From positions 21,390,001-21,454,000 of the forward strand of contig OZ024748.1 of assembly GCA_964016885.1 (NCBI GenBank): DNA of 64,000 bases, written 5' to 3'. Within the stretch, counting starts at the first letter, position 1. Each line of letters starts with the position of its first letter. This document shows positions 10,702 through 62,299 of this stretch, piece after piece. The notes beneath the pieces were generated by a model. The model worked only from the letters and a program-made list of their open reading frames with translations, was not told where the DNA came from and did no database searches. The stretch is from Eledone cirrhosa. Lineage: Eukaryota. The translations under genes were made by a program, and so were the position numbers.

Positions 10702-10776
10702 GCTGTCTGATGAGATCATGGCACTGGTTACGCAAAATCGCGTGGCCACTGTCATCATTGAAATGTGTATCACAGT
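10702..10776 (+). ncRNA. Type I hammerhead ribozyme with intact core
   Basis: GCTGT-CTGATGA-[20-position stem II, loop AAAATC]-GAAA-TGTGTA-TC-ACAGT. Predicted cleavage after AUC at 10771. Confidence 0.8.
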
Positions 10777-11273: not shown

Positions 11274-11605
11274 TCATCATCATCATCATCATCATCATTT
11301 TACGTCCACTTTTCCCTGCTTGCAAGGGTGGGACGGGAACTGATTCTGGCTTGATTTCTACAGCTGGATGCCCTTCCTAACACTAACCTCATTTACAGTG
11401 AGTGCTGGGTGCTTTTTTGCCGTGGCACCTCCACGACCACTTTGCAGTGGAATGATAGGGACCCGGTCCCTATCATTCCACTGCTGAGTAAACTGGAGCA
11501 ATGTGAAATAAAGTGTCTTGCTCAAGGAAACAACACATCGCCCGGTCTGAGAATTGAACTCACAACCTTTCGATTGCAAGGCCAATGCTCTAACCACTAA
11601 GCCAT
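11271..11605 (-). mobile_element. tRNA/CORE-like SINE with RTE-type tail (family A)
   Basis: Near-identical to the reverse complement of 14444-14778, with a small internal deletion. Confidence 0.9.
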
Positions 11606-14328: not shown

Positions 14329-14810
<482 letters not shown>

Positions 14811-14989
14811 TTTTTCAAGACAAACACAGAGATGTAAAAACACAAGTCATATTAGATTAACACATGGGAAGAAGTAAACGAGGTTTTCAATGTATCAGAG
14901 ACCTTCAAGAAATATATATATAGTAATAATTGTTTCTACTTTTGGCACAAGGCCAGCAATTACCCAGTGCATTACTGGTACTTTATATA

Positions 14990-15121
14990 TATAGTAATAA
15001 TAATAAATGTGAAGACTAAAATCCGAAGAGGGCTCAATAAGGATAATAAATTTCAGAAGATCCCGTTAAGGGTGAAAGCAGCGATTCTTTGCTTAAACTT
15101 TAATGTTATTTTAATAAATAT
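14990..15121 (-). mobile_element. Deleted TA-embedded element related to 35475-35690
   Basis: Shares TGAAGACTAAAATCC.AAGAGGGCTC.ATAAGGA in the same orientation and a ~70-bp block in inverted orientation. Confidence 0.7.
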
Positions 15122-15297: not shown

Positions 15298-15608
15298 TCA
15301 TTTCATTTCATTTTCATTTCATTTTACGTCCACTTTACCCTGCTTGCAAGGGTGGGACGGGAACTGATGCTGGCTTGATTTCTACAGCTGGATGCCCTTC
15401 CTAACACCAACCTCATTTACAGTGAGTGCTGGGCGCTTTTTTGCCGTGGCACCTCCACGACCACTTTGCAGTGGTAAACTGAGTAAACTGGAGCAATGTG
15501 AAATAAAGTGTCTTGCTCAAGGAAACAACACATCACCCGGTCTGAGAATTGAACTCACAACCTTTCGATTGCAAGGCCAATGATCTAACCACTAAGCCAT
15601 GTGCCTCC
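15298..15608 (-). mobile_element. SINE family A
   Basis: Near-identical to the reverse complement of 14444-14778. Confidence 0.9.
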
Positions 15609-15631
15609 ATCTATATATGTATATATATATA

Positions 15632-15673
<42 letters not shown>

Positions 15674-16041: not shown

Positions 16042-16382
16042 TTCATTCATTTCATTTCATTTTACGTCCACTTTACCCTGCTTGCAAGGGTGGGACGGGA
16101 ACTGACTCTGGCTTGATTTCTACAGTTGGATGCCCTTCCTAACACCAACCTCATTTACAGTGAGTGCTGGGTGTTTTTTTGCCGTGGCACCTCCACGACC
16201 ACTTTGCAGTGGAATGATAGGAACCCCAGTCCCTATCATCTCATTTCTACAGCTGAGTAAACTGGAGCAATGTGAAATAAAGTGTCTTGCTCAAGGAAAC
16301 AACACATCACCCGGTCTGAGAATTGAACTCACAACCTTTCGATTGCAAGGCCAATGCTCTAACCACTAAGCCATGTGCCTCC
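16042..16382 (-). mobile_element. SINE family A
   Basis: Near-identical to the reverse complement of 14444-14778. Confidence 0.9.
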
Positions 16383-16448
16383 ATGAAAATCTTGAAAATA
16401 ATCAGAAATTTGAAGGATTTAGTAAAATAATTAACTTTCTCATTACAG

Positions 16449-17134: not shown

Positions 17135-18515
17135 AACACTAGACCAGGCTTGTCAAAATATTATAATCTCACTAGACCTGTCATATATTATAACCTCACT
17201 AGACCAGGCTTGTCATATATGATAACCTCACTAGATCAGGCCTATCATATATTATAACCTCACTAGATCAGGCCTGTCATATATTATAACCTCACTAGAC
17301 CAGGCCTGTCATATATTATAACCTCACTAGACCAGACCTGTCTTATATTATAACCTCATTAGACCAGACATGTCTTATATTATAACCTCACTAGACCAGG
17401 CTTGTCATATATTATAACCTCACTAGACCAGGCCTGTCATATTATAACCTCACTAGACCAGGCCTGTCATATTATAACCTCACTAGACCAGGCCTGTCTT
17501 ATATTATAACCTCACTAGACCAGACCTGTCTTATATTATAACCTCACTAGACCAGGCCTGTCATATATCATAACCTCACTAGACCAGGCCTGTCATATAT
17601 TAGAACCTCACTAGGTCAGGCTTGTCATATATTATAACCTCACTAGACCAGGCCTGTCATATTTTATAACCTCACTAGACCAGACCTGTCATATATTATA
17701 ACCTCACTAGACCAGGCCTGTCATATTTTATAACCTCACTAGACCAGACCTGTCATATATTATAACCTCACTAGACCAGGCCTGTCATATTATAACCTCA
17801 CAAGACCAGGCCTGTCATATTATAACCTCACTAGACCAGGCCTGTCATATTATAACCTCACAAGACCAGACCTGTCATATATTATAACCTGACTAGACCA
17901 GGCCTGTCATATTATAACCTCAGAAGACCAGGCCTGTCATATTATAACCTCACTAGACCAGGCCTGTCATATTATAACCTCACAAGACCAGGCCTGTCAT
18001 ATTATAACCTCACTAGACCAGGCCTGTCATATTATAACCTCACAAGACCAGGCCTGTCATATATTATAACCTCATTAGACCAGGCCTGTCATATTATAAC
18101 CTCACTAGACTAGGCCTGTCATATATTTTAACCTCACTAGACTAGGCCTGTCATATATTTTAACCTCACTAGACTAGGCCTGTCATATATTATAACCTCA
18201 CTAGACTAGGCCTGTCATATTATAACCTCACTAGACTAGGCCTGTCAGATTTTAACCTCACTAGACCAGGCCTGTCATATATTATAACCTCACTAGACCA
18301 GACCTGTCATATATTTTAACCTCACTAGACTAGGCCTGTCCTATATTATAACCTCACTAGACTAGGCCTGTCCTATATTATAACCTCACTAGACCAGGCC
18401 TGTCATATATTATAACCTCACTAGACCAGACCTGTCATATATTTAAACCTCACTAGACTAGGCCTGTCCTATATTATAACCTCACTAGATCAGGCCTGTC
18501 ATATATTATAACCTA
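17135..18515. repeat. 28-30-bp minisatellite
   Basis: Unit TATAACCTCACTAGACCAGGCCTGTCATA(TA)T. Confidence 0.95.
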
Positions 18516-19095: not shown

Positions 19096-22000
19096 GAGTT
19101 GGTAATAGGACATTTCAGGTGATAGTAACAGAGTTACAGAGGTAATAGGACATTTCAGGTGATAGTAGCAGAGTTACAGAGGTAATAGGACATTTCAGGT
19201 GATAGTAGCAGAGTTACAGAGGTAATAGGACATTTCAGGTGATAGTAGCAGAGTTACAGAGGTAATAGGACATTTCAGGTGATAGTAGCAGAGTTACAGA
19301 GGTAATAGGACATTTCAGGTGATAGTAGCAGAGTTACAGAGGTAATAGGACATTTCAGGTGATAGTAGCAGAGTTACAGAGGTAATAGGACATTTCAGGT
19401 GATAGTAGCAGAGTTACAGAGGTAATAGGACATTTCAGGTGATAGTAACAGAGTTACAGAGGTAATAGGACATTTCAGGTGATAGTAGCAGAGTTACAGA
19501 GGTAATAGGACATTTCAGGTGATAGTAGCAGAGTTACAGAGGTAATAGGACATTTCAGGTGATAGTAGCAGAGTTACAGAGGTAATAGGACATTTCAGGT
19601 GATAGTAGCAGAGTTACATAGGTAATAGGACATTTCAGGTGATAGTAGCAGAGTTACAGAGGTAATAGGACATTTCAGGTGATAGTAGCAGAGTTACAGA
19701 GGTAATAGGACATTTCAGGTGATAGTAGCAGAGTTACAGAAGTAATAGGACATTTCAGGTGATAGTAGCAGAGTTACAGAAGTAATATGACATTTCAGGT
19801 GATAGTAGCAGAGTTACAGAGGTAATAGGACATTTCAGGTGATAGTAGCAGAGTTACAGAGGTAATAGGACATTTCAGGTGATAGTAGCAGAGTTACAGA
19901 GGTAATAGGACATTTCAGGTGATAGTAGCAGAGTTACAGAGGTAATAGGACATTTCAGGTGATAGTAGCAGAGTTACAGAGGTAATAGGACATTTCAGGT
20001 GATAGTAGCAGAGTTACAGAGGTAATAGAACATTTCAGGTGATAGTAGCAGAGTTATAGAAGTAATAGGACATTTCAGGTGATAGTAGCAGAGTTACAGA
20101 AGTAATAGGACATTTCAGGTGATAGTAGCAGAGTTACAGAGGTAATAGGACATTTCAGATGATAGTAGCAGAGTTACAGAGGTAATAGGACATTTCAGGT
20201 GATAGTAGCAGAGTTACAGAGGTAATAGGACATTTCAGGTGATAGTAGCTGAGTTACAGAAGTAATATGACATTTCAGGTGATAGTAGCAGAGTTACAGA
20301 GGTAATAGGACATTTCAGGTGATAGTAGCAGAGTTACAGAGGTAATAGGACATTTCAGGTGATAGTAGCAGAGTTACAGAGGTAATAGGACATTTCAGGT
20401 GATAGTAGCAGAGTTACAGAGGTAATAGGACATTTCAGGTGATAGTAGCAGAGTTACATAGGTAATAGGTCATTTCAGGTGATAGTAGCAGAGTTACATA
20501 GGTAATAGGTCATTTCAGGTGATAGTAGCAGAGTTACATAGGTAATAGGTCATTTCAGGTGATAGTAGCAGAGTTACAGAGGTAATAGGACATTTCAGGT
20601 GATAGTAGCAGAGTTACATAGGTAATAGGTCATTTCAGGTGATAGTAGCAGAGTTACATAGGTAATAGGTCATTCCAGGTGATAGTAGCAGAGTTACATA
20701 GGTAATAGGTCATTTCAGGTGATAGTAGCAGAGTTACAGAGGTAATATGACATTTCAGGTGATAGTAGCAGAGTTACAGAGGTAATAGGACATTTCAGGT
20801 GATAGTAGCAGAGTTACAGAGGTAATAGGACATTTCAGGTGATAGTAGCAGAGTTACAGAGGTAATAGGTCATTTCAGGTGATAGTAGCAGAGTTACAGA
20901 GGTAATAGGACATTTCAGGTGATAGTAGCAGAGTTACAGAGGTAATAGGACATTTCAGATGATAGTAGCAGAGTTACAGAGGTAATAGGTCATTTCAGGT
21001 GATAGTAGCAGAGTTACATAGGTAATAGGTCATTTCAGGTGATAGTAGCAGAGTTACATAGGTAATAGGTCATTTCAGGTGATAGTAGCAGAGTTACAGA
21101 AGTAATATGACATTTCAGGTGATAGTAGCAGAGTTACAGAGGTAATAGGACATTTCAGGTGATAGTAGCAGAGTTACAGAAATAACATGACATTTCAGGT
21201 GATAGTAGCAGAGTTACAGAAGTAATAGGACATTTCAGGTGATAGTAGCAGAGTTACAGAGGTAATAGGACATTTCAGGTGATAGTAGCAGAGTTACAGA
21301 AGTAATAGGACATTTCAGGTGATAGTAGCAGAGTTACAGAGGTAATAGGACATTTCAGGTGATAGTAGCAGAGTTACAGAGGTAATAGGACATTTCAGGT
21401 GATAGTAGCAGAGTTACAGAGGTAATAGGACATTTCAGGTGATAGTAGCAGAGTTACAGAGGTAATAGGACATTTCAGGTGATAGTAGCAGAGTTACAGA
21501 GGTAATAGGACATTTCAGGTGATAGTAGCAGAGTTACAGAGGTAATAGGACATTTCAGGTGATAGTAGCAGAGTTACAGAGGTAATAGGACATTTCAGGT
21601 GATAGTAGCAGAGTTACACAGGTAATAGGACATTTCAGGTGATAGTAGCAGAGTTACAGAGGTAATAGGACATTTCAGGTGATAGTAGCAGAGTTACAGA
21701 GGTAATAGGACATTTCAGGTGATAGTAGCAGAGTTACATAGGTAATAGGTCATTTCAGGTGATAGTAGCAGAGTTACAGAAGTAATAGGACATTTCAGGT
21801 GATAGTAGCAGAGTTACAGAGGTAATAGGATATTTCAGGTGATAGTAGCAGAGTTACAGAAGTAATAGGACATTTCAGGTGATAGTAGCAGAGTTACAGA
21901 GGTAATAGGACATTTCAGGTGATAGTAGCAGAGTTACAGAGGTAATATGACATTTCAGGTGATAGTAGCAGAGTTACAGAAGTAATAGGACATTTCAGGT

Positions 22001-24048
22001 GATAGTAGCAGAGTTACAGAGGTAATAGGACATTTCAGGTGATAGTAGCAGAGTTACAGAGGTAATAGGACATTTCAGGTGATAGTAGCAGAGTTACATA
22101 GGTAATAGGTCATTTCAGGTGATAGTAGCAGAGTTACAGAGGTAATAGGACATTTCAGGTGATAGTAGCAGAGTTACAGAGGTAATAGGACATTTCAGGT
22201 GATAGTAGCAGAGTTACAGAAGTAATAGGACATTTCAGGTGATAGTAGCAGAGTTACAGAGGTAATAGGACATTTCAGGTGATAGTAGCAGAGTTACATA
22301 GGTAATAGGTCATTTCAGGTGATAGTAGCAGAGTTACAGAGGTAATAGGTCATTTCAGGTGATAGTAGCAGAGTTACAGAAGTAATAGGACATTTCAGGT
22401 GATAGTAGCAGAGTTACAGAGGTAATAGGACATTTCAGGTGATAGTAGCAGAGTTACAGAGGTAATAGGACATTTCAGGTGATAGTAGCAGAGTTACAGA
22501 GGTAATAGGACATTTCAGGTGATAGTAGCAGAGTTACAGAGGTAATAGGTCATTTCAGGTGATAGTAGCAGAGTTACAGAGGTAATAGGACATTTCAGGT
22601 GATAGTAGCAGAGTTACAGAAGTAATAGGACATTTCAGATGATAGTAGCAGAGTTACAGAGGTAATAGGACATTTCAGGTGATAGTAGCAGAGTTACAGA
22701 GGTAATAGGACATTTCAGGTGATAGTAGCAGAGTTACAGAGGTAATAGGTCATTTCAGGTGATAGTAGCAGAGTTACAGAGGTAATAGGACATTTCAGGT
22801 GATAGTAGCAGAGTTACAGAAGTAATAGGACATTTCAGATGATAGTAGCAGAGTTACAGAGGTAATAGGACATTTCAGGTGATAGTAGCAGAGTTACAGA
22901 GGTAATAGGACATTTCAGGTGATAGTAGCAGAGTTACAGAGGTAATAGGTCATTTCAGGTGATAGTAGCAGAGTTACAGAGGTAATAGGACATTTCAGGT
23001 GATAGTAGCAGAGTTACAGAAGTAATAGGACATTTCAGATGATAGTAGCAGAGTTACAGAGGTAATAGGACATTTCAGGTGATAGTAGCAGAGTTACAGA
23101 GGTAATAGGACATTTCAGGTGATAGCAGAGTTACAGAGGTAATAGGTCATTTCAGGTGATAGTAGCAGAGTTACAGAGGTAATAGGACATTTCAGGTGAT
23201 AGTAGCAGAGTTACAGAAGTAATAGGACATTTCAGATGATAGTAGCAGAGTTACAGAGGTAATAGGACATTTCAGGTGATAGTAGCAGAGTTACAGAAGT
23301 AATAGGACATTTCAGGTGATAGTAGCAGAGTTACAGAGGTAATAGGACATTTCAGGTGATAGTAGCAGAGTTACAGAGGTAATAGGACATTTCAGGTGAT
23401 AGTAGCAGAGTTACATAGGTAATAGGACATTTCAGGTGATAGTAGCAGAGTTACAGAGGTAATAGGACATTTCAGGTGATAGTAGCAGAGTTACAGAGGT
23501 AATAGGACATTTCAGGTGATAGTAGCAGGGTTACAGAGGTAATAGGACATTTCAGGTGATAGTAGCAGAGTTACAGAGGTAATAGGACATTTCAGGTGAT
23601 AGTAGCAGAGTTACAGAGGTAATAGGACATTTCAGGTGATAGTAGCAGAGTTACAGATGTAATAGGACATTTCAGGTGATAGTAGCAGGGTTACAGAGGT
23701 AATAGGACATTTCAGGTGATAGTAGCAGAGTTACAGAGGTAATAGGACATTTCAGGTGATAGTAGCAGAGTTACAGAGGTAATAGGACATTTCAGGTGAT
23801 AGTAGCAGAGTTACAGATGTAATAGGACATTTCAGGTGATAGTAGCAGGGTTACAGAGGTAATAGGACATTTCAGGTGATAGTAGCAGAGTTACAGAGGT
23901 AATAGGACATTTCAGGTGATAGTAGCAGAGTTACAGAGGTAATAGGACATTTCAGGTGATAGTAGCAGAGTTACAGATGTAATAGGACATTTCAGGTGAT
24001 AGTAGCAGGGTTACAGAGGTAATAGGACATTTCAGGTGATAGTAGCAA
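19096..24048. repeat. 40-bp minisatellite, ~124 copies, highly homogeneous
   Basis: Unit GGTAATAGGACATTTCAGGTGATAGTAGCAGAGTTACAGA; a single 3-bp deletion near 23125. Confidence 0.98.
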
Positions 24049-24689
24049 AGTAGCGATGATAAAACAAACAGATGAAATAAACCCCATGAACAAACAGATG
24101 TACCAGTCATTATGTAAACCTACTACTACTACTACTCTTGCTGCTAGTACTACTGTTTAATTGAGAATAATTTCCATAGTTTAGTTGATAAGTTTACTTA
24201 GTGCAAGCTTACTGTGTGGTCTTTCCTGTGTGTGTCAGTCTGTGTACGTTTGTGTGTATGTGTGTGTGTCTCGGTGTGTCTGTCTGTGTGTCAGTCTGTA
24301 TGTATGTGTGTGTGTGTGTGTGTGTGTGTCTGTTTCTATGTGTGTGTCTGTGCATTCTTCAATCACCAGGTCAAATGTTGTCACCAGGAAGCCTATAATA
24401 TTAGACACAACATGGTAATTACACCACCACCACCACCACCATCAGCACCACTATCCCCACCACCACCACCATCACTATCCCCACCACCACCACCATCAGC
24501 ACCACAACTACATTCACCTCCACACCCTCATTATCAGCACTACCATCTCTATCAGCACCACCATTACATCCACCCCCACCACCATTGTTATCAACTCCAC
24601 TACTACCATCACCATCTCTGCCACCACCATCATTAATACTACTACTGCCACCATCTTGGTCAGCAATATCACTACCCTGTCCTCCTCTA

Positions 24690-27600
24690 CTACCATCACT
24701 ACCACCACCACCACCACTATCATTACCACTACTACACCACTTCTACTACCATCAATACCACCACCACCACTATCATTACCACTACTACACCATCACTACC
24801 ACCATCAATACCACCACCACCACCACTATCATTACCACTACTACACCATCACTACCACCATCAATACCACCACCACCACCACTATCATTACCACTACTAC
24901 ACCATCACTACCACCATCAATACCACCACCACCACCACTATCATTACCACTACTACACCATCACTACCACCATCAATACCACCACCACCACTATCATTAC
25001 CACTACTACACCACCACTACCACCATCAATACCACCACTACCACTATCATTACCACTACTACACCATCACTACCACCATCAATACCACCACCACCACTAT
25101 CATTACCACTACTACACCATCACTACCACCATCAATACCACCACCACCACCACTATCATTACCACTACTACACCATCACTACCACCATCAATACCACCAC
25201 CACCACTATCATTACCACTACTACACCACCACTACCACCATCAATACCACCACTACCACTATCATTACCACTACTACACCACCACTACCACCATCAATAC
25301 CACCACCACCACTATCATTACCACTACTACACCATCACTACCACCATCAATACCACCACTACCACTATCATTACCACTACTACACCATCACTACCACCAT
25401 CAATACCACCACCACTACCACTATCATTACCACTACTACACCACCACTACCACCATCAATACCACCACCACCACTATCATTACCACTACTACACCACCAC
25501 TACCACCATCAATACCACCACTACCACTATCATTACCACTACTACACCACCACTACCACCATCAATACCACCACCACCACTATCATTACCACTACTACAC
25601 CACCACTACCACCATCAATACCACCACTACCACTATCATTACCACTACTACACCACCACTACCACCATCAATACCACCACCACCACTATCATTACCACTA
25701 CTACACCATCACTACCACCATCAATACCACCACCACCACTATCATTACCACTACTACACCATCACTACCACCATCAATACCACCACCACTACCACTATCA
25801 TTACCACTACTACACCACCACTACCACCATCAATACCACCACCACCACTATCATTACCACTACTACACCATCACTACCACCATCAATACCACCACTACCA
25901 CTATCATTACCACTACTACACCATCACTACCACCATCAATACCACCACCACCACCACTATCATTACCACTACTACACCACCACTACCACCATCAATACCA
26001 CCACTACCACTATCATTACCACTACTACACCATCACTACCACCATCAATACCACCACTACCACTATCATTACCACTACTACACCATCACTACCACCATCA
26101 ATACCACCACCACCACCACTATCATTACCACTACTACACCACCACTACCACCATCAATACCACCACTACCACTATCATTACCACTACTACACCATCACTA
26201 CCACCATCAATACCACCACTACCACTATCATTACCACTACTACACCATCACTACCACCATCAATACCACCACCACCACCACTATCATTACCACTACTACA
26301 CCATCACTACCACCATCAATACCACCACTACCACTATCATTACCACTACTACACCATCACTACCACCATCAATACCACCACCACCACCACTATCATTACC
26401 ACTACTACACCACCACTACCACCATCAATACCACCACTACCACTATCATTACCACTACTACACCATCACTACCACCATCAATACCACCACTACCACTATC
26501 ATTACCACTACTACACCATCACTACCACCATCAATACCACCACCACCACCACTATCATTACCACTACTACACCACCACTACCACCATCAATACCACCACT
26601 ACCACTATCATTACCACTACTACACCATCACTACCACCATCAATACCACCACTACCACTATCATTACCACTACTACACCATCACTACCACCATCAATACC
26701 ACCACTACCACTATCATTACCACTACTACACCATCACTACCACCATCAATACCACCACTACCACTATCATTACCACTACTACACCATCACTACCACCATC
26801 AATACCACCACTACCACTATCATTACCACTACTACACCACCACTACCACCATCAATACCACCACCACCACCACTATCATTACCACTACTACACCACCACT
26901 ACCACCATCAATACCACCACTACCACTATCATTACCACTACTACACCATCACTACCACCATCAATACCACCACCACCACTATCATTACCACTACTACACC
27001 ATCACTACCACCATCAATACCACCACTACCACTATCATTACCACTACTACACCACCACTACCACCATCAATACCACCACTACCACTATCATTACCACTAC
27101 TACACCATCACTACCACCATCAATACCACCACTACCACTATCATTACCACTACTACACCACCACTACCACCATCAATACCACCACTACCACTATCATTAC
27201 CACTACTACACCATCACTACCACCATCAATACCACCACCACCACTATCATTACCACTACTACACCACCACTACCACCATCAATACCACCACTACCACTAT
27301 CATTACCACTACTACACCATCACTACCACCATCAATACCACCACCACCACCACTATCATTACCACTACTACACCACCACTACCACCATCAATACCACCAC
27401 TACCACTATCATTACCACTACTACACCATCACTACCACCATCAATACCACCACCACCACTATCATTACCACTACTACACCACCACTACCACCATCAATAC
27501 CACCACCACCACCACTATCATTACCACTACTACACCATCACTACCACCATCAATACCACCACCACCACCACTATCATTACCACTACTACACCACCACTAC

Positions 27601-29740
27601 CACCATCAATACCACCACCACCACCACTATCATTACCACTACTACACCACCACTACCACCATCAATACCACCACCACCACCACTATCATTACCACTACTA
27701 CACCACCACTACCACCATCAATACCACCACCACCACCACTATCATTACCACTACTACACCACCACTACCACCATCAATACCACCACCACCACCACTATCA
27801 TTACCACTACTACACCATCACTACCACCATCAATACCACCACTACCACTATCATTACCACTACTACACCATCACTACCACCATCAATACCACCACTACCA
27901 CTATCATTACCACTACTACACCATCACTACCACCATCAATACCACCACCACCACCACTATCATTACCACTACTACACCACCACTACCACCATCAATACCA
28001 CCACTACCACTATCATTACCACTACTACACCATCACTACCACCATCAATACCACCACTACCACTATCATTACCACTACTACACCATCACTACCACCATCA
28101 ATACCACCACCACCACCACTATCATTACCACTACTACACCACCACTACCACCATCAATACCACCACTACCACTATCATTACCACTACTACACCATCACTA
28201 CCACCATCAATACCACCACTACCACTATCATTACCACTACTACACCATCACTACCACCATCAATACCACCACTACCACTATCATTACCACTACTACACCA
28301 CCACTACCACCATCAATACCACCACTACCACTATCATTACCACTACTACACCACCACTACCACCATCAATACCACCACTACCACTATCATTACCACTACT
28401 ACACCATCACTACCACCATCAATACCACCACCACCACTATCATTACCACTACTACACCATCACTACCACCATCAATACCACCACCACCACCACTATCATT
28501 ACCACTACTACACCACCACTACCACCATCAATACCACCACTACCACTATCATTACCACTACTACACCATCACTACCACCATCAATACCACCACTACCACT
28601 ATCATTACCACTACTACACCACCACTACCACCATCAATACCACCACTACCACTATCATTACCACTACTACACCACCACTACCACCATCAATACCACCACT
28701 ACCACTATCATTACCACTACTACACCATCACTACCACCATCAATACCACCACTACCACTATCATTACCACTACTACACCACCACTACCACCATCAATACC
28801 ACCACTACCACTATCATTACCACTACTACACCATCACTACCACCATCAATACCACCACCACCACTATCATTACCACTACTACACCATCACTACCACCATC
28901 AATACCACCACCACCACTATCATTACCACTACTACACCATCACTACCACCATCAATACCACCACTACCACTATCATTACCACTACTACACCATCACTACC
29001 ACCATCAATACCACCACCACCACCACTATCATTACCACTACTACACCACCACTACCACCATCAATACCACCACTACCACTATCATTACCACTACTACACC
29101 ATCACTACCACCATCAATACCACCACCACCACCACTATCATTACCACTACTACACCATCACTACCACCATCAATACCACCACCACCACCACTATCATTAC
29201 CACTACTACACCATCACTACCACCATCAATACCACCACCACCACCACTATCATTACCACTACTACACCATCACTACCACCATCAATACCACCACCACCAC
29301 CACTATCATTACCACTACTACACCATCACTACCACCATCAATACCACCACCACCACCACTATCATTACCACTACTACACCATCACTACCACCATCAATAC
29401 CACCACCACCACCACCACCACTATCATTACCACTACTACACCACCACTACCACCATCAATACCACCACTACCACTATCATTACCACTACTACGCCACCAC
29501 TACCACCATCAATACCACCACCACCACTATCATTACCACTACTACACCACCACTACCACCATCAATACCACCACCACCACTATCATTACCACTACTACGC
29601 CACCACTACCACCATCAATACCACTATCATTACCACTACTACACCACCACTACCACCACTACCACTATCATTACCACTACTACACCACCACTACTACCAT
29701 CAATACCACTATCATTACCACTACTACACCGCCACTACCA
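24690..29740. repeat. 53/56-bp ACC-rich minisatellite, ~93 copies
   Basis: Unit ACTATCATTACCACTACTACACCATCACTACCACCATCAATACCACCACTACC. The ~1700-aa ORFs cycle through the same peptide in several frames. Confidence 0.97.
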
Positions 29741-35456: not shown

Positions 35457-35474
35457 TATATATATATATATATA

Positions 35475-35690
35475 GTAATAATAATAAAATTGAAGACTAA
35501 AATCCAAAGAGGGCTCGATAAGGAAAATATATATCAAATATATAAGAACCGTAGAGCAAATATTTATTAAAATAACAGATTAAAGTTTAAGCAAAGAATC
35601 GCTGCTTTCACCCTTAACGGGATCTTCTGAAACTAACAAAGTCAATCTGTAAACGCAGAACTGGATATTTCAAAAAACGTTGCAATATAT
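35475..35690 (-). mobile_element. TA-embedded element with a GCTC/GAGC variant of the 3' motif
   Basis: Minus strand reads GCTC-TACGG..CCTTA-TC-GAGC-CCT (35510-35557), ~35 nt from (TA)n. Homologous to 14990-15121. Confidence 0.6.
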
Positions 35691-35737
35691 ATATTAATTC
35701 AAAATATTAACAAAATAGATATTCTTGTGATCAAGTA

Positions 35738-35804
35738 TATTTTATTATACATATTTCAGAGGTACTGAGTTAACTTCAACAGTACGTCCTCATCAGATAA
35801 AATA
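35738..35804 (-). ncRNA. Type I hammerhead ribozyme with intact core
   Basis: TATTTTAT-CTGATGA-GGACGTACTG..CAGTACCTCT-GAAA-TATGTA-TA-ATAAAATA. Confidence 0.8.
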
Positions 35805-35832
35805 AGATGTCAGGGTATGTCATGCATCATCT

Positions 35833-35899
35833 TATTTTATCTGATGAGGACGAACTGTTGAAGTTAACTAAGTACCTCTAAAATGTGTATAATAAAATA
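35833..35899 (+). ncRNA. Hammerhead copy with mutated core (GAAA to AAAA)
   Basis: Mirror of 35738-35804 with G12 changed to A and two stem II substitutions; predicted inactive. Confidence 0.65.
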
Positions 35900-36036
35900 T
35901 ACTTGATCACAAGAATATCTATTTTGTTAATATTTTGAATTAATATTAATAACTCCGGAAAACCACAACTGTTGAGTGCTTCCAATCTATTGTAAAATTC
36001 ATTCTTTGATTTATTCATTGAACCTTGTTTAACCTT

Positions 36037-36083
<47 letters not shown>

Positions 36084-41834: not shown

Positions 41835-41874
41835 GATATTAAACAAATGGAAATTACATTTATAAAACCATATT

Positions 41875-41939
41875 TATTTCATTATATATATTTCAGGGAT
41901 ATCATATTAAAATATGGTATGCCCTCTTCAGACAAAATA
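41875..41939 (-). ncRNA. Type I hammerhead ribozyme with CUGAAGA core
   Basis: TATTTTGT-CTGAAGA-GGGCATACCATAT-ttta-ATATGATATCCCT-GAAA-TATATA-TA-ATGAAATA. The plus-strand 3' motif ACTC-CAA-aac-TTG-TT-GAGTGCT lies at 41983-42004. Confidence 0.75.
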
Positions 41940-42071
41940 CAATATATAGACAGTTTTATAAATAAATTTGACCCAAATAAATACTCCAAAACTTGTTGAG
42001 TGCTTTTATATCAGTTATAAAATATTTACTCGTTGTAACCTAACATTTTAAATAAAACTTTTGCATATATA

Positions 42072-53779: not shown

Positions 53780-53962
53780 ATAGAGGATAACAAGATATCA
53801 TTATAGGTAATCCAGTTAGAGGTTGTGAATACTTCTTATCATGGATAGTTTTAGCGTACGGCGTTGCTTGACTAAACAAGAGGTTTACGTAGATGGCGAG
53901 TTTATGATTTAACTTGTATTCCTATGTATATATATATAAAAGATGGTTAAAGGAGTTCCATG

Positions 53963-54033
53963 TATTTTATTATGCGCATTTCAAAAACAAATATCATCAT
54001 GCAATAACATTTGTGTTTTCATCAGATAAAATA
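53963..54033 (-). ncRNA. Type I hammerhead ribozyme with intact core
   Basis: Exact mirror of 54152-54222. Confidence 0.8.
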
Positions 54034-54151
54034 GGAAGACATGATATGAAGGTTAAAAAACACTTGTGAATAGTGCAGTTTTAAATCAACATATGTTGAT
54101 TTATACCTGCACTATTCACAAGTGTTTTTTAACATTCATATCATGTCTTCC

Positions 54152-54222
54152 TATTTTATCTGATGAAAACACAAATGTTATTGCATGATGATATTTGTTT
54201 TTGAAATGCGCATAATAAAATA
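54152..54222 (+). ncRNA. Type I hammerhead ribozyme with intact core
   Basis: TATTTTAT-CTGATGA-AAACACAAATGTTATT..GATGATATTTGTTTTT-GAAA-TGCGCA-TA-ATAAAATA. Predicted cleavage after 54214. Confidence 0.8.
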
Positions 54223-54345
54223 CATGGAACTCTTTTAACCATCTTTTGTTCTTATATATTATGTATACTCCAGTCCTACAAACTGTAGAGTGCTTCTTAT
54301 CCGATATCTGCATTGCTTTATTGTACTACAATAAAACTCACCTCC

Positions 54346-54396
<51 letters not shown>

Positions 54397-58782: not shown

Positions 58783-58875
58783 TGGAGAGAAAGATAGAGT
58801 GAGAGAGTATATTGAAAGAGAGACATAGAGAGAGAATATGTATACACACACACACACAGACACATATATATATAT

Positions 58876-59256
58876 GTGTGTCTGATGGTAGCTAAGATGC
58901 TTCCATAGTCGGTATGCCGGTTGAGCACTCTATGCTCTTACAGAGCAGAGTATGATATAATAGAAAACGACAAATCAGTGATGCATCTGAACTCAATTTG
59001 TTGTGAGTTACAATTGTTTCGCTGGCGGACAGCTCGAGACGCGATCGATGTGTAGATTTGTCTGATCCTGGACCCACAGGTTCGACAGACACGTCTAATG
59101 ATTTCAGAGTGAATTCTTTCACTCCGTCGAACCTGCGGGTCCGGAATCAGACAGATCCACACAATGATGGCGTCTTGGGCTGTTCGCCGGGGGAAACAAT
59201 TGTAACACACAGTAAATTGAGTTCAGATGCATCACTGATTTGTCGTTTTCTATTAT
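58876..59256 (-). mobile_element. Fold-back element: ~130-bp imperfect arms plus the 3' motif on the minus strand
   Basis: Arms 58957-59086 and 59126-59256. Minus-strand motif ACTC-TGCTCT-gta-AGAGCA-TA-GAGTGCT at 58924-58951; (TA)n flanks. Confidence 0.82.
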
Positions 59257-61982: not shown

Positions 61983-62186
61983 ATAGGAAAAAGTATGACC
62001 CCGACGGCAGAGCTCAAGCCGTTTCAACGCCTATTTCTGGACTCAGAAATGTCCAGAAATAGCCGTCGAAACGGCTTGAGCTCTGCCGTCGGGGTCATAC
62101 TTTTTTCTATTACCCACTCTACTACCCTAAGTATTAAGTACTCGGTGCGTTATGGTCCATCTGGTTCCTTACCACAATTCCTTTGT
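61983..62186 (+). mobile_element. Fold-back element: 60-bp arms plus the 3' motif
   Basis: Arms 61983-62042 and 62051-62110. Motif ACTC-TACT-acccta-AGTA-TT-AAGTACT at 62116-62142; (TA)n flanks. Confidence 0.8.
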
Positions 62187-62299
62187 TATATATATATATA
62201 TATGCATAAATGCACTAATACTCACATACATATATACACTCACAGACTTGTACACACACACATAGTCTAAGACACACACATAAGTATATACACTCTGTG

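Follow-up and report, generated by a model that had tools for sequence, protein, structure and literature searches.

The closest described relatives of the element analysed here are the Hydra-clade EN+ Penelope-like elements (PLEs), including Hydra-1_Obim of Octopus bimaculoides (Craig et al., 2021, PMC8557442; this and the other papers are cited from their accessible parts). Features in common are a C-terminal GIY-YIG, DKT, CxCx5C, CxxC and CxH around the E and N, a canonical hammerhead at the 3′ end, a (TA)n target and inverted 5′-truncated copies; hammerheads are called universal in the clade, and for Penelope-13_HM one is listed on each strand (PMC8557442). Truncated PLEs with dual minimal hammerheads on opposite strands, about 100–700 bp apart and with a palindromic helix III, have been described together with a dimer model (Cervera and de la Pena, 2014, PMC4209133). 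The Poseidon element PAc of Anolis likewise has two internal start sites bounding a tail; both strands of its AT-rich target are cut and extended, and insertion proceeds without need for the hammerhead (Frangieh et al., 2024, PMC11167929). Transcription of D. virilis Penelope begins inside the pseudo-LTR (pLTR), from an internal promoter (PMC2377424), and the metazoan non-LTR retrozymes are also short, non-coding, pLTR-derived and provided with a type I hammerhead (10.64898/2026.07.22.740005). Inverted copies, tails, (TA)n targeting and opposite-strand hammerheads are already published (PMC8557442, PMC11167929, PMC4209133, PMC3846280, PMC2377424, PMC13282606, 10.64898/2026.07.22.740005), and the origin of the inverted ends of PLEs and the role of their hammerheads are called open (PMC8557442, PMC11167929).

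The window, a stretch of 64,000 nucleotides from Eledone cirrhosa (contig OZ024748.1, positions 21,390,001 to 21,454,000), contains a palindromic element of 411 bases (53938–54348). Two short cDNAs are inserted here head to head, a structure already known from PLEs, and the element is a truncated, inverted insertion from a new, abundant Hydra-clade family, set apart from Hydra-1_Obim by eye. The near-perfect, loop-less palindrome of the original prediction, centred at 54092/54093, was borne out, its 155-bp arms (53938–54092 and 54093–54247) differing at 4 of 155 positions. Its parts are:

53938–54092, minus strand: inverted, tail-less pLTR arm (second cDNA), which enters (TA)n about 13 nt before the usual short end.
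54093–54348, plus strand: sense, tail-bearing pLTR arm, 96–98% identical to the pLTRs of the autonomous element that are contiguous with its 3′UTR.
54091–54094, no strand: arm junction with a 4-nt self-complementary overlap; 54091 is the putative transcription start of the sense arm (C/A).
54152–54222, plus strand: type I hammerhead motif whose helix III is palindromic, with cleavage predicted after 54214.
53963–54033, minus strand: mirror copy of the hammerhead motif, a descriptor match.
54250–54266, plus strand: TA-rich tract directly 5′ of the hairpin, the first (short) end site; the G at 54263 is almost never present in short ends.
54267–54294, plus strand: conserved tail hairpin (RCUC, inner helix, 2-nt bulge, GAGY, RCU), a putative RT/EN binding site.
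54295–54348, plus strand: remainder of the tail of about 81 nt, up to the long end site, the second of the two; the ORF of tandem copies begins 17 nt further on.
54349–54396, no strand: (TA)n target, right side; the left side is 53926–53937.

The predicted type I hammerhead in each arm was matched by descriptor at 54152–54222 (plus strand) and, in mirror image, at 54033–53963 (minus strand), the plus-strand copy comprising an 8-bp stem I, CUGAUGA, a 36-nt stem II region with a 12-bp helix, GAAA and UGCGCA; the ACUC...GAGUGCU hairpin also stands where it had been placed, 54 nt ahead of (TA)n. Since the two hammerheads lie on opposite strands, any single transcript holds one sense copy and the two cannot meet within one RNA; a transcript spanning both arms is predicted to fold into a 155-bp hairpin (−244 kcal/mol), in which the ribozyme would be blocked. 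No target duplication is readable in the (TA)n flanks of this insertion.

A distinct non-autonomous system had been proposed, along with a search for autonomous elements carrying RT and GIY-YIG; such elements were found in the same genome, with intact ORFs, and the arm proved to be the pLTR of one of them. The search of the species' own genome (3.0 Gb) gave 83 matches out of 40 scored candidates; among ten loci examined for a close match to one arm only, the arms at L022 and L024 flank RT plus GIY-YIG coding sequence. All 130 scored genome matches to a piece of the RT were 92–100% identical. An open frame of 806–908 codons was found in 13 of 20 fetched parent loci, which were selected mostly for long frames, and seven 821-codon copies are 0.4–1.9% apart. 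The unit is arranged as pLTR, 17 nt, ORF, 3′UTR of 0.8–1.1 kb and pLTR, and its intact ORF product, with RT and GIY-YIG, is about 800 aa long. The arm is not single-copy: an exact 16-mer from it occurs 17,477 times in the genome (control, 0), so that there are at least 17,477 arm copies.

Judged by the diagnostic sequence motifs in section 11 of PMC8557442, the parent is a Hydra-clade autonomous PLE. Its 821-codon protein P0003, absent from the window stub, has YRDD at 378, SDKTN at 143 (DKT replacing DKG), RLRWTA at 56 (a variant of RWK with K changed to T), the CxCx5C linker CNCRIKNKC at 680, a C-terminal GIY-YIG-like motif at 699–716, CNLCLNE at 780 and N..CLH at 799–810; CX2-5CxxC is absent from it, as is CCHH by eye, and by eye it also agrees motif by motif with the reference Hydra proteins (PMC8557442 supplement). 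The pLTR contains a hammerhead by descriptor match, a putative ribozyme, and nearly all listed ends enter TA or CA repeats. Parent element and motifs together support the original view of the palindrome as the product of a Penelope-like, (TA)n-targeting, hammerhead-bearing retroelement. At 3.7–3.9 kb the unit exceeds 3 kb because its 3′UTR is long and internally duplicated; Hydra elements are described as 'generally short', with no length criterion (PMC8557442).

Twenty-five protein homologues are 31–42% identical, one of them from Argonauta hians, and 11 of the 25 have precomputed Pfam matches. A Pfam search with two partial proteins gave 0 families, a PDB sequence search gave no significant match, two diagnostic strings of the family were not found in the accessible part of the PMC8557442 supplement, and the element was not among the matches listed from public RNA runs. 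From the RT thumb to the endonuclease (about 590–675) P0003 carries an Asn/Pro/Thr-rich low-complexity insert, which the N-rich inserts of rotifer Penelope resemble (PMC3846280). Four near-identical RT copies in the L048 region (G000 C4, 352.20–352.28 Mb), spaced at about 27–28 kb, suggest a large tandem segmental repeat.

Insertions were sampled at the first 30 places and in 40 further regions (L066–L135) from the first 100 listed, with about the last nine left out. They consist of two segments joined head to head, and their outer ends are bimodal, falling at arm position 173 or 256–258 in 75 of 96 arms; two fixed end sites lie 81 nt apart, on either side of the hairpin. Three other families show the same bimodality, and loose ends occur at the same places in public runs X1, X4, X5 and X6, which include runs of other samples and organisms (X1 is perhaps the source of the assembly). 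The two kinds of end accord with the tail that PLEs may have or lack and with the pair of internal start sites of the anole element in vitro (PMC11167929). A scripted count covering 62 position-ordered loci scored 34 insertions, which comprise 31 long+short, 2 long+long and 1 short+short pairs (p = 4e-7); the one short+short pair involves an arm truncated at the edge of the locus, which is long in L095. The G of the TA-rich tract is kept in 58 of 63 long arms, but of 67 other ends no more than 4 have it, and two of these are mutated long arms; the loss of this G from short ends would be expected if a (TA)n primer anneals over the tract. In 16 of the 31 long+short pairs (14 of them secure, that is, without L113 and L120) each arm holds sequence missing from the other, the tail-less arm reaching further upstream. 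An apparent difference between long and short arms at arm position 42 was rejected as a selection artefact, as it occurred in 0 of 62 long arms at loci unselected for likeness to the window.

The inner ends are similarly concentrated. By pattern count, 4,205 arms with a base other than C in front begin at the A of C/ATATG, 867 sites have exactly the palindromic centre of the window copy, and 5,070 arms run into 3′UTR; about half of the arms thus start at the C/A site, an approximate figure because the pattern lengths differ. Among sampled arms, 31 of 103 start within −9 to +8. The base preceding the start, counted manually in the first 100 listed rows, is G in 43, T in 41 and A in 16 (p = 6e-7 against an assumed baseline of 21% G); for six of the 43 G rows a short templated duplication is an alternative to a cap copy. 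An untemplated G is a signature of RT copying an RNA cap, and the C/A hot spot with its preceding G is likely to mark a capped transcription start. The site is pyrimidine/A and initiator-like, and three other families also have pyrimidine/A hot spots, each its own. cDNAs ending at C/A have self-complementary 4-nt ends, the annealing of which gives exactly the observed centre.

The 3′ hairpin, already noted as conserved, covaries across about 15 families. The fetched loci hold 273 instances in 15 clusters; 13 of the 15 have an inner helix of at least 3 bp behind the 2-nt bulge, against 20% for cross-family pairings, a comparison that is no formal covariation test, the clusters being related and one of them mis-registered on a nested match. 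At the base of the helix A-U and G-C alternate among clusters, and the motif is also recognisable in the terminal sequences of Hydra-2_Amil, Hydra-1_Ajap and Hydra-2_Ajap, from coral and sea cucumber (PMC8557442 supplement). Minimum-energy folding of the whole tail does not give the conserved hairpin, and folding of the isolated motif recovers it. Because the hairpin lies between both end sites in every family examined, it is likely to be a protein-binding site, presumably for RT/EN.

The window element is thus probably a head-to-head pLTR pair of an autonomous Hydra-clade PLE in (TA)n, likely produced when both cut strands primed RT on a likely capped, pLTR-initiated RNA. Built on the observed parent family, its layout, the outer ends 81 nt apart, the covarying hairpin, the one-long-one-short rule and the C/A inner end, the scheme would run as follows: the protein would bind the tail hairpin; one (TA)n strand would pair with the TA-rich tract on the 5′ side of the hairpin, and the other target strand would start about 55 nt 3′ of the hairpin; with the bound hairpin just downstream of the transcription start, the two cDNAs would be only about 170 and 256 nt long on reaching the cap; and annealing of their 4-nt ends, which are self-complementary, would give a loop-less palindrome. 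Arm divergence has a median of 1.3% within a locus against about 5% between loci, and the low within-locus value could alternatively come from conversion between arms. Twin priming is favoured by the anole PLE, which in vitro cuts and extends both strands, is predicted to be a dimer and uses uncleaved RNA (PMC11167929), and an RNA start in the pLTR by the pLTR promoter of D. virilis Penelope (PMC2377424). Against the scheme, the short arm of the window copy stops 13 nt short of the usual end, and the start sites of the anole PLE are not homologous to its target, unlike the annealing proposed here for the short end (PMC11167929). A palindromic stub keeps the putative start site and could itself be a template.

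This last point touches the original view that the palindromes are a self-propagating non-autonomous family, in which short copies are transcribed, mobilised in trans and descend from one another, a reading that appears unlikely. It would accommodate the 867 exact centres, the start site and hairpin retained in each stub, some haplotypes found in solo arms only and the non-autonomous PLE derivatives already known (PMC8557442; 10.64898/2026.07.22.740005); the solo label is also more clustered than in shuffles (24 changes against 36), although the label shared by the two arms at each locus exaggerates this clustering. In a weakly resolved arm tree of 124 rows (L031 onwards plus the window, with duplicates and L002–L030 left out), however, solo and UTR-linked arms are interleaved, 18 identical rows comprise 10 UTR-linked and 8 solo arms, and solo arms form one group in 0 of 200 bootstrap trees. 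Nor do the arms divide into a left and a right lineage. Descent of stub from stub is also opposed by the two extra bases that the pLTR–ORF junction has templated in 5 of 23 non-tandem start-site long arms and in 4 of 14 UTR-linked ones. The interleaving and the shared identical rows argue that stubs are mostly recurrent products of each active subfamily, with perhaps a minor share for self-propagation. Were the inverted arm instead made by one cDNA folding back and priming itself, or by self-priming of an antisense template as proposed for rotifer PLEs (PMC3846280), loop-less centres on a short natural palindrome and nearly identical arms at the same locus would follow, but in 14–16 of the 31 pairs each arm holds sequence that the other lacks, so that neither templated the other, and the start-site hot spot is present in asymmetric junctions too; fold-back is largely refuted for the asymmetric copies and is quite improbable as the general route.

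Very little weight can be given to the idea that hammerhead cleavage, perhaps with circularisation as in retrozymes, defines the copied RNA. The hammerhead core is conserved in at least 135 arm instances, an 8-bp dimer duplex is possible at helix III (predicted −10.5 kcal/mol), a few copies begin at 122–124 (L038, L040, L088), and a re-ligated circle is a possible template for tandem copies; matches to the cut-site pattern number 57 and those at a control site 8 nt from it 14, with 37 and 8 left once internal deletions are removed by reading, perhaps a slight excess of ends at the cut site. These ends, at most 57, nevertheless stand two orders below the start-site class of about 5,900 arms, about one in three of the 57 ends (and half of the remaining 37) begins with TAT and fits joining to (TA)n, only 3 of 103 sampled arms start at 118–128, and two related families without the core reach thousands of candidates. 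The hammerhead cut, considered as the definer of 5′ ends from L038 and L040, was not upheld by the end counts. Rfam hammerhead or other ribozyme models were not among the matches listed for the window, which were simple-repeat miRNA noise only, and the isolated hammerhead folds no better than shuffles (z −0.7), so that the ribozyme call draws on core motif and conservation, not on energy. From the distribution of sequence ends, the hammerhead here would be a passenger of the pLTR and the copied RNA mostly uncleaved; the few cut-site ends agree with uncleaved RNA as the main in vitro substrate (PMC11167929). That the element is a MITE-like DNA transposon, or a fold-back artefact of assembly, as a short, non-coding inverted repeat with TA flanks might suggest, is scarcely credible, since the repeats are internal, head-to-head and diverged, the tail is asymmetric, the sequence is the pLTR of an RT element, and the same ends and the opposite-strand joint at the start site are found in contigs from another sample.

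The architecture had also been said to recur in the window, and the combination of palindrome, tail hairpin and (TA)n does so; a complete hammerhead core in each recurrence does not, being present in one arm at 35.7 kb and one arm at 41.9 kb only. A descriptor scan of the whole window found none at 1.8, 15.1, 58.9 or 62.0 kb, its five matches being the two mirror copies, the single ones in the 35.7 and 41.9 kb stubs and, unrelated to these, one at 10.7 kb. The other stubs are:

35690–36040, plus strand: stub of a second Hydra-type family; intact hammerhead in the inverted arm only (35738–35804).
41835–42066, no strand: stub of a third family; hammerhead at 41875–41939 (minus strand), tail hairpin at 41983 (plus strand).
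58875–59256, minus strand: stub of a fourth family; tail hairpin present, complete hammerhead core absent.
61983–62190, plus strand: stub of a fifth family; tail hairpin present, complete hammerhead core absent.

All three other window families tested have RT/EN-coding partners of their own. The RT partner of the 35.7 kb family is about 50% identical to P0003 (L178, L195), and the 58.9 and 62.0 kb families are linked to Hydra-type endonuclease sequence in L180, L186, L153, L188 and L190. The CUGANGA core is absent from the copies of these last two families that were read; at the same five loci their pLTR retains a GAAA..GUH-like half without that core. It is an evenly balanced question whether an undescribed, covarying hairpin found throughout the Hydra clade, from corals and sea cucumbers to Eledone, positions an asymmetric RT dimer with strands priming on either side, so that twin priming up to the capped start would make the inverted and palindromic structures of all EN+ PLEs, several families having shed the hammerhead and kept the hairpin.

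Several further repeats were noted. A further type I hammerhead motif, distinct in its stems, lies at 10702–10776 (plus strand), preceded by another inverted repeat at about 10.58–10.64 kb, and similar motifs occur in L115 and elsewhere; additional small hammerhead families, at least four in number and with helix III loops CUAG, UGCA and GAAC, lie in the flanks of L077, L097, L144 and L151. Two related TA-embedded fragments of yet another repeat lie at 14984–15120 and 35474–35640, the latter being the partial site noted earlier at 35.5 kb. A tRNA-headed, SINE-like repeat occupies TA tracts in long inverted pairs (14442–14774, 15314–15638, 16052–16384, 11547–11604), and long, homogeneous minisatellite arrays with units of 32, 40 and 53 bp extend over 17137–18514, 19101–24051 and 24704–29721. 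In L143, L179, L181, L183 and L184, stubs of different Hydra-type families are nested adjacently in shared TA tracts, so that each insertion seeds the targets of the next.

The thousands of natural products of this family carry three countable footprints, namely the pairing of ends, a start-site hot spot preceded by an extra G and near-absent ribozyme-cut ends, which make the insertion mechanism of PLEs testable. The family offers intact young ORFs from a little-studied clade, along with a compact hairpin that is a candidate for protein binding, and with them a ready in vitro system for a (TA)n-targeting retroelement related to telomerase; such stubs are also prone to mis-annotation as MITEs or miRNA hairpins. 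A literature search covering few subscription journals gave no paper on the family, its tail hairpin, its pairing rule or the cap-like G, and the accessible part of PMC8557442 likewise gave nothing on the hairpin, the start-site hot spot or the rule.

Compared by eye with Hydra-1_Obim, the hammerhead stems and the protein differ, and relative to the listed Hydra elements (about 1.1–3.0 kb) the unit of about 3.7–3.9 kb has RWT for RWK, a very long stem II and at least 17,477 arms (PMC8557442). The tail is 81 nt long here and lies wholly before the ORF, against 30–40 nt in PAc, and the short site is TA-rich, unlike that of PAc, which makes primer annealing likely (PMC11167929). Retrozymes form head-to-tail tandem arrays and lineages of their own, whereas the stubs described here are head-to-head, dispersed and interleaved with the autonomous family (10.64898/2026.07.22.740005); they are neither head-to-tail nor, by the arm tree, an independent non-autonomous lineage. 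Relative to the dual hammerheads of truncated PLEs (PMC4209133), the parent element and both ends are mapped here.
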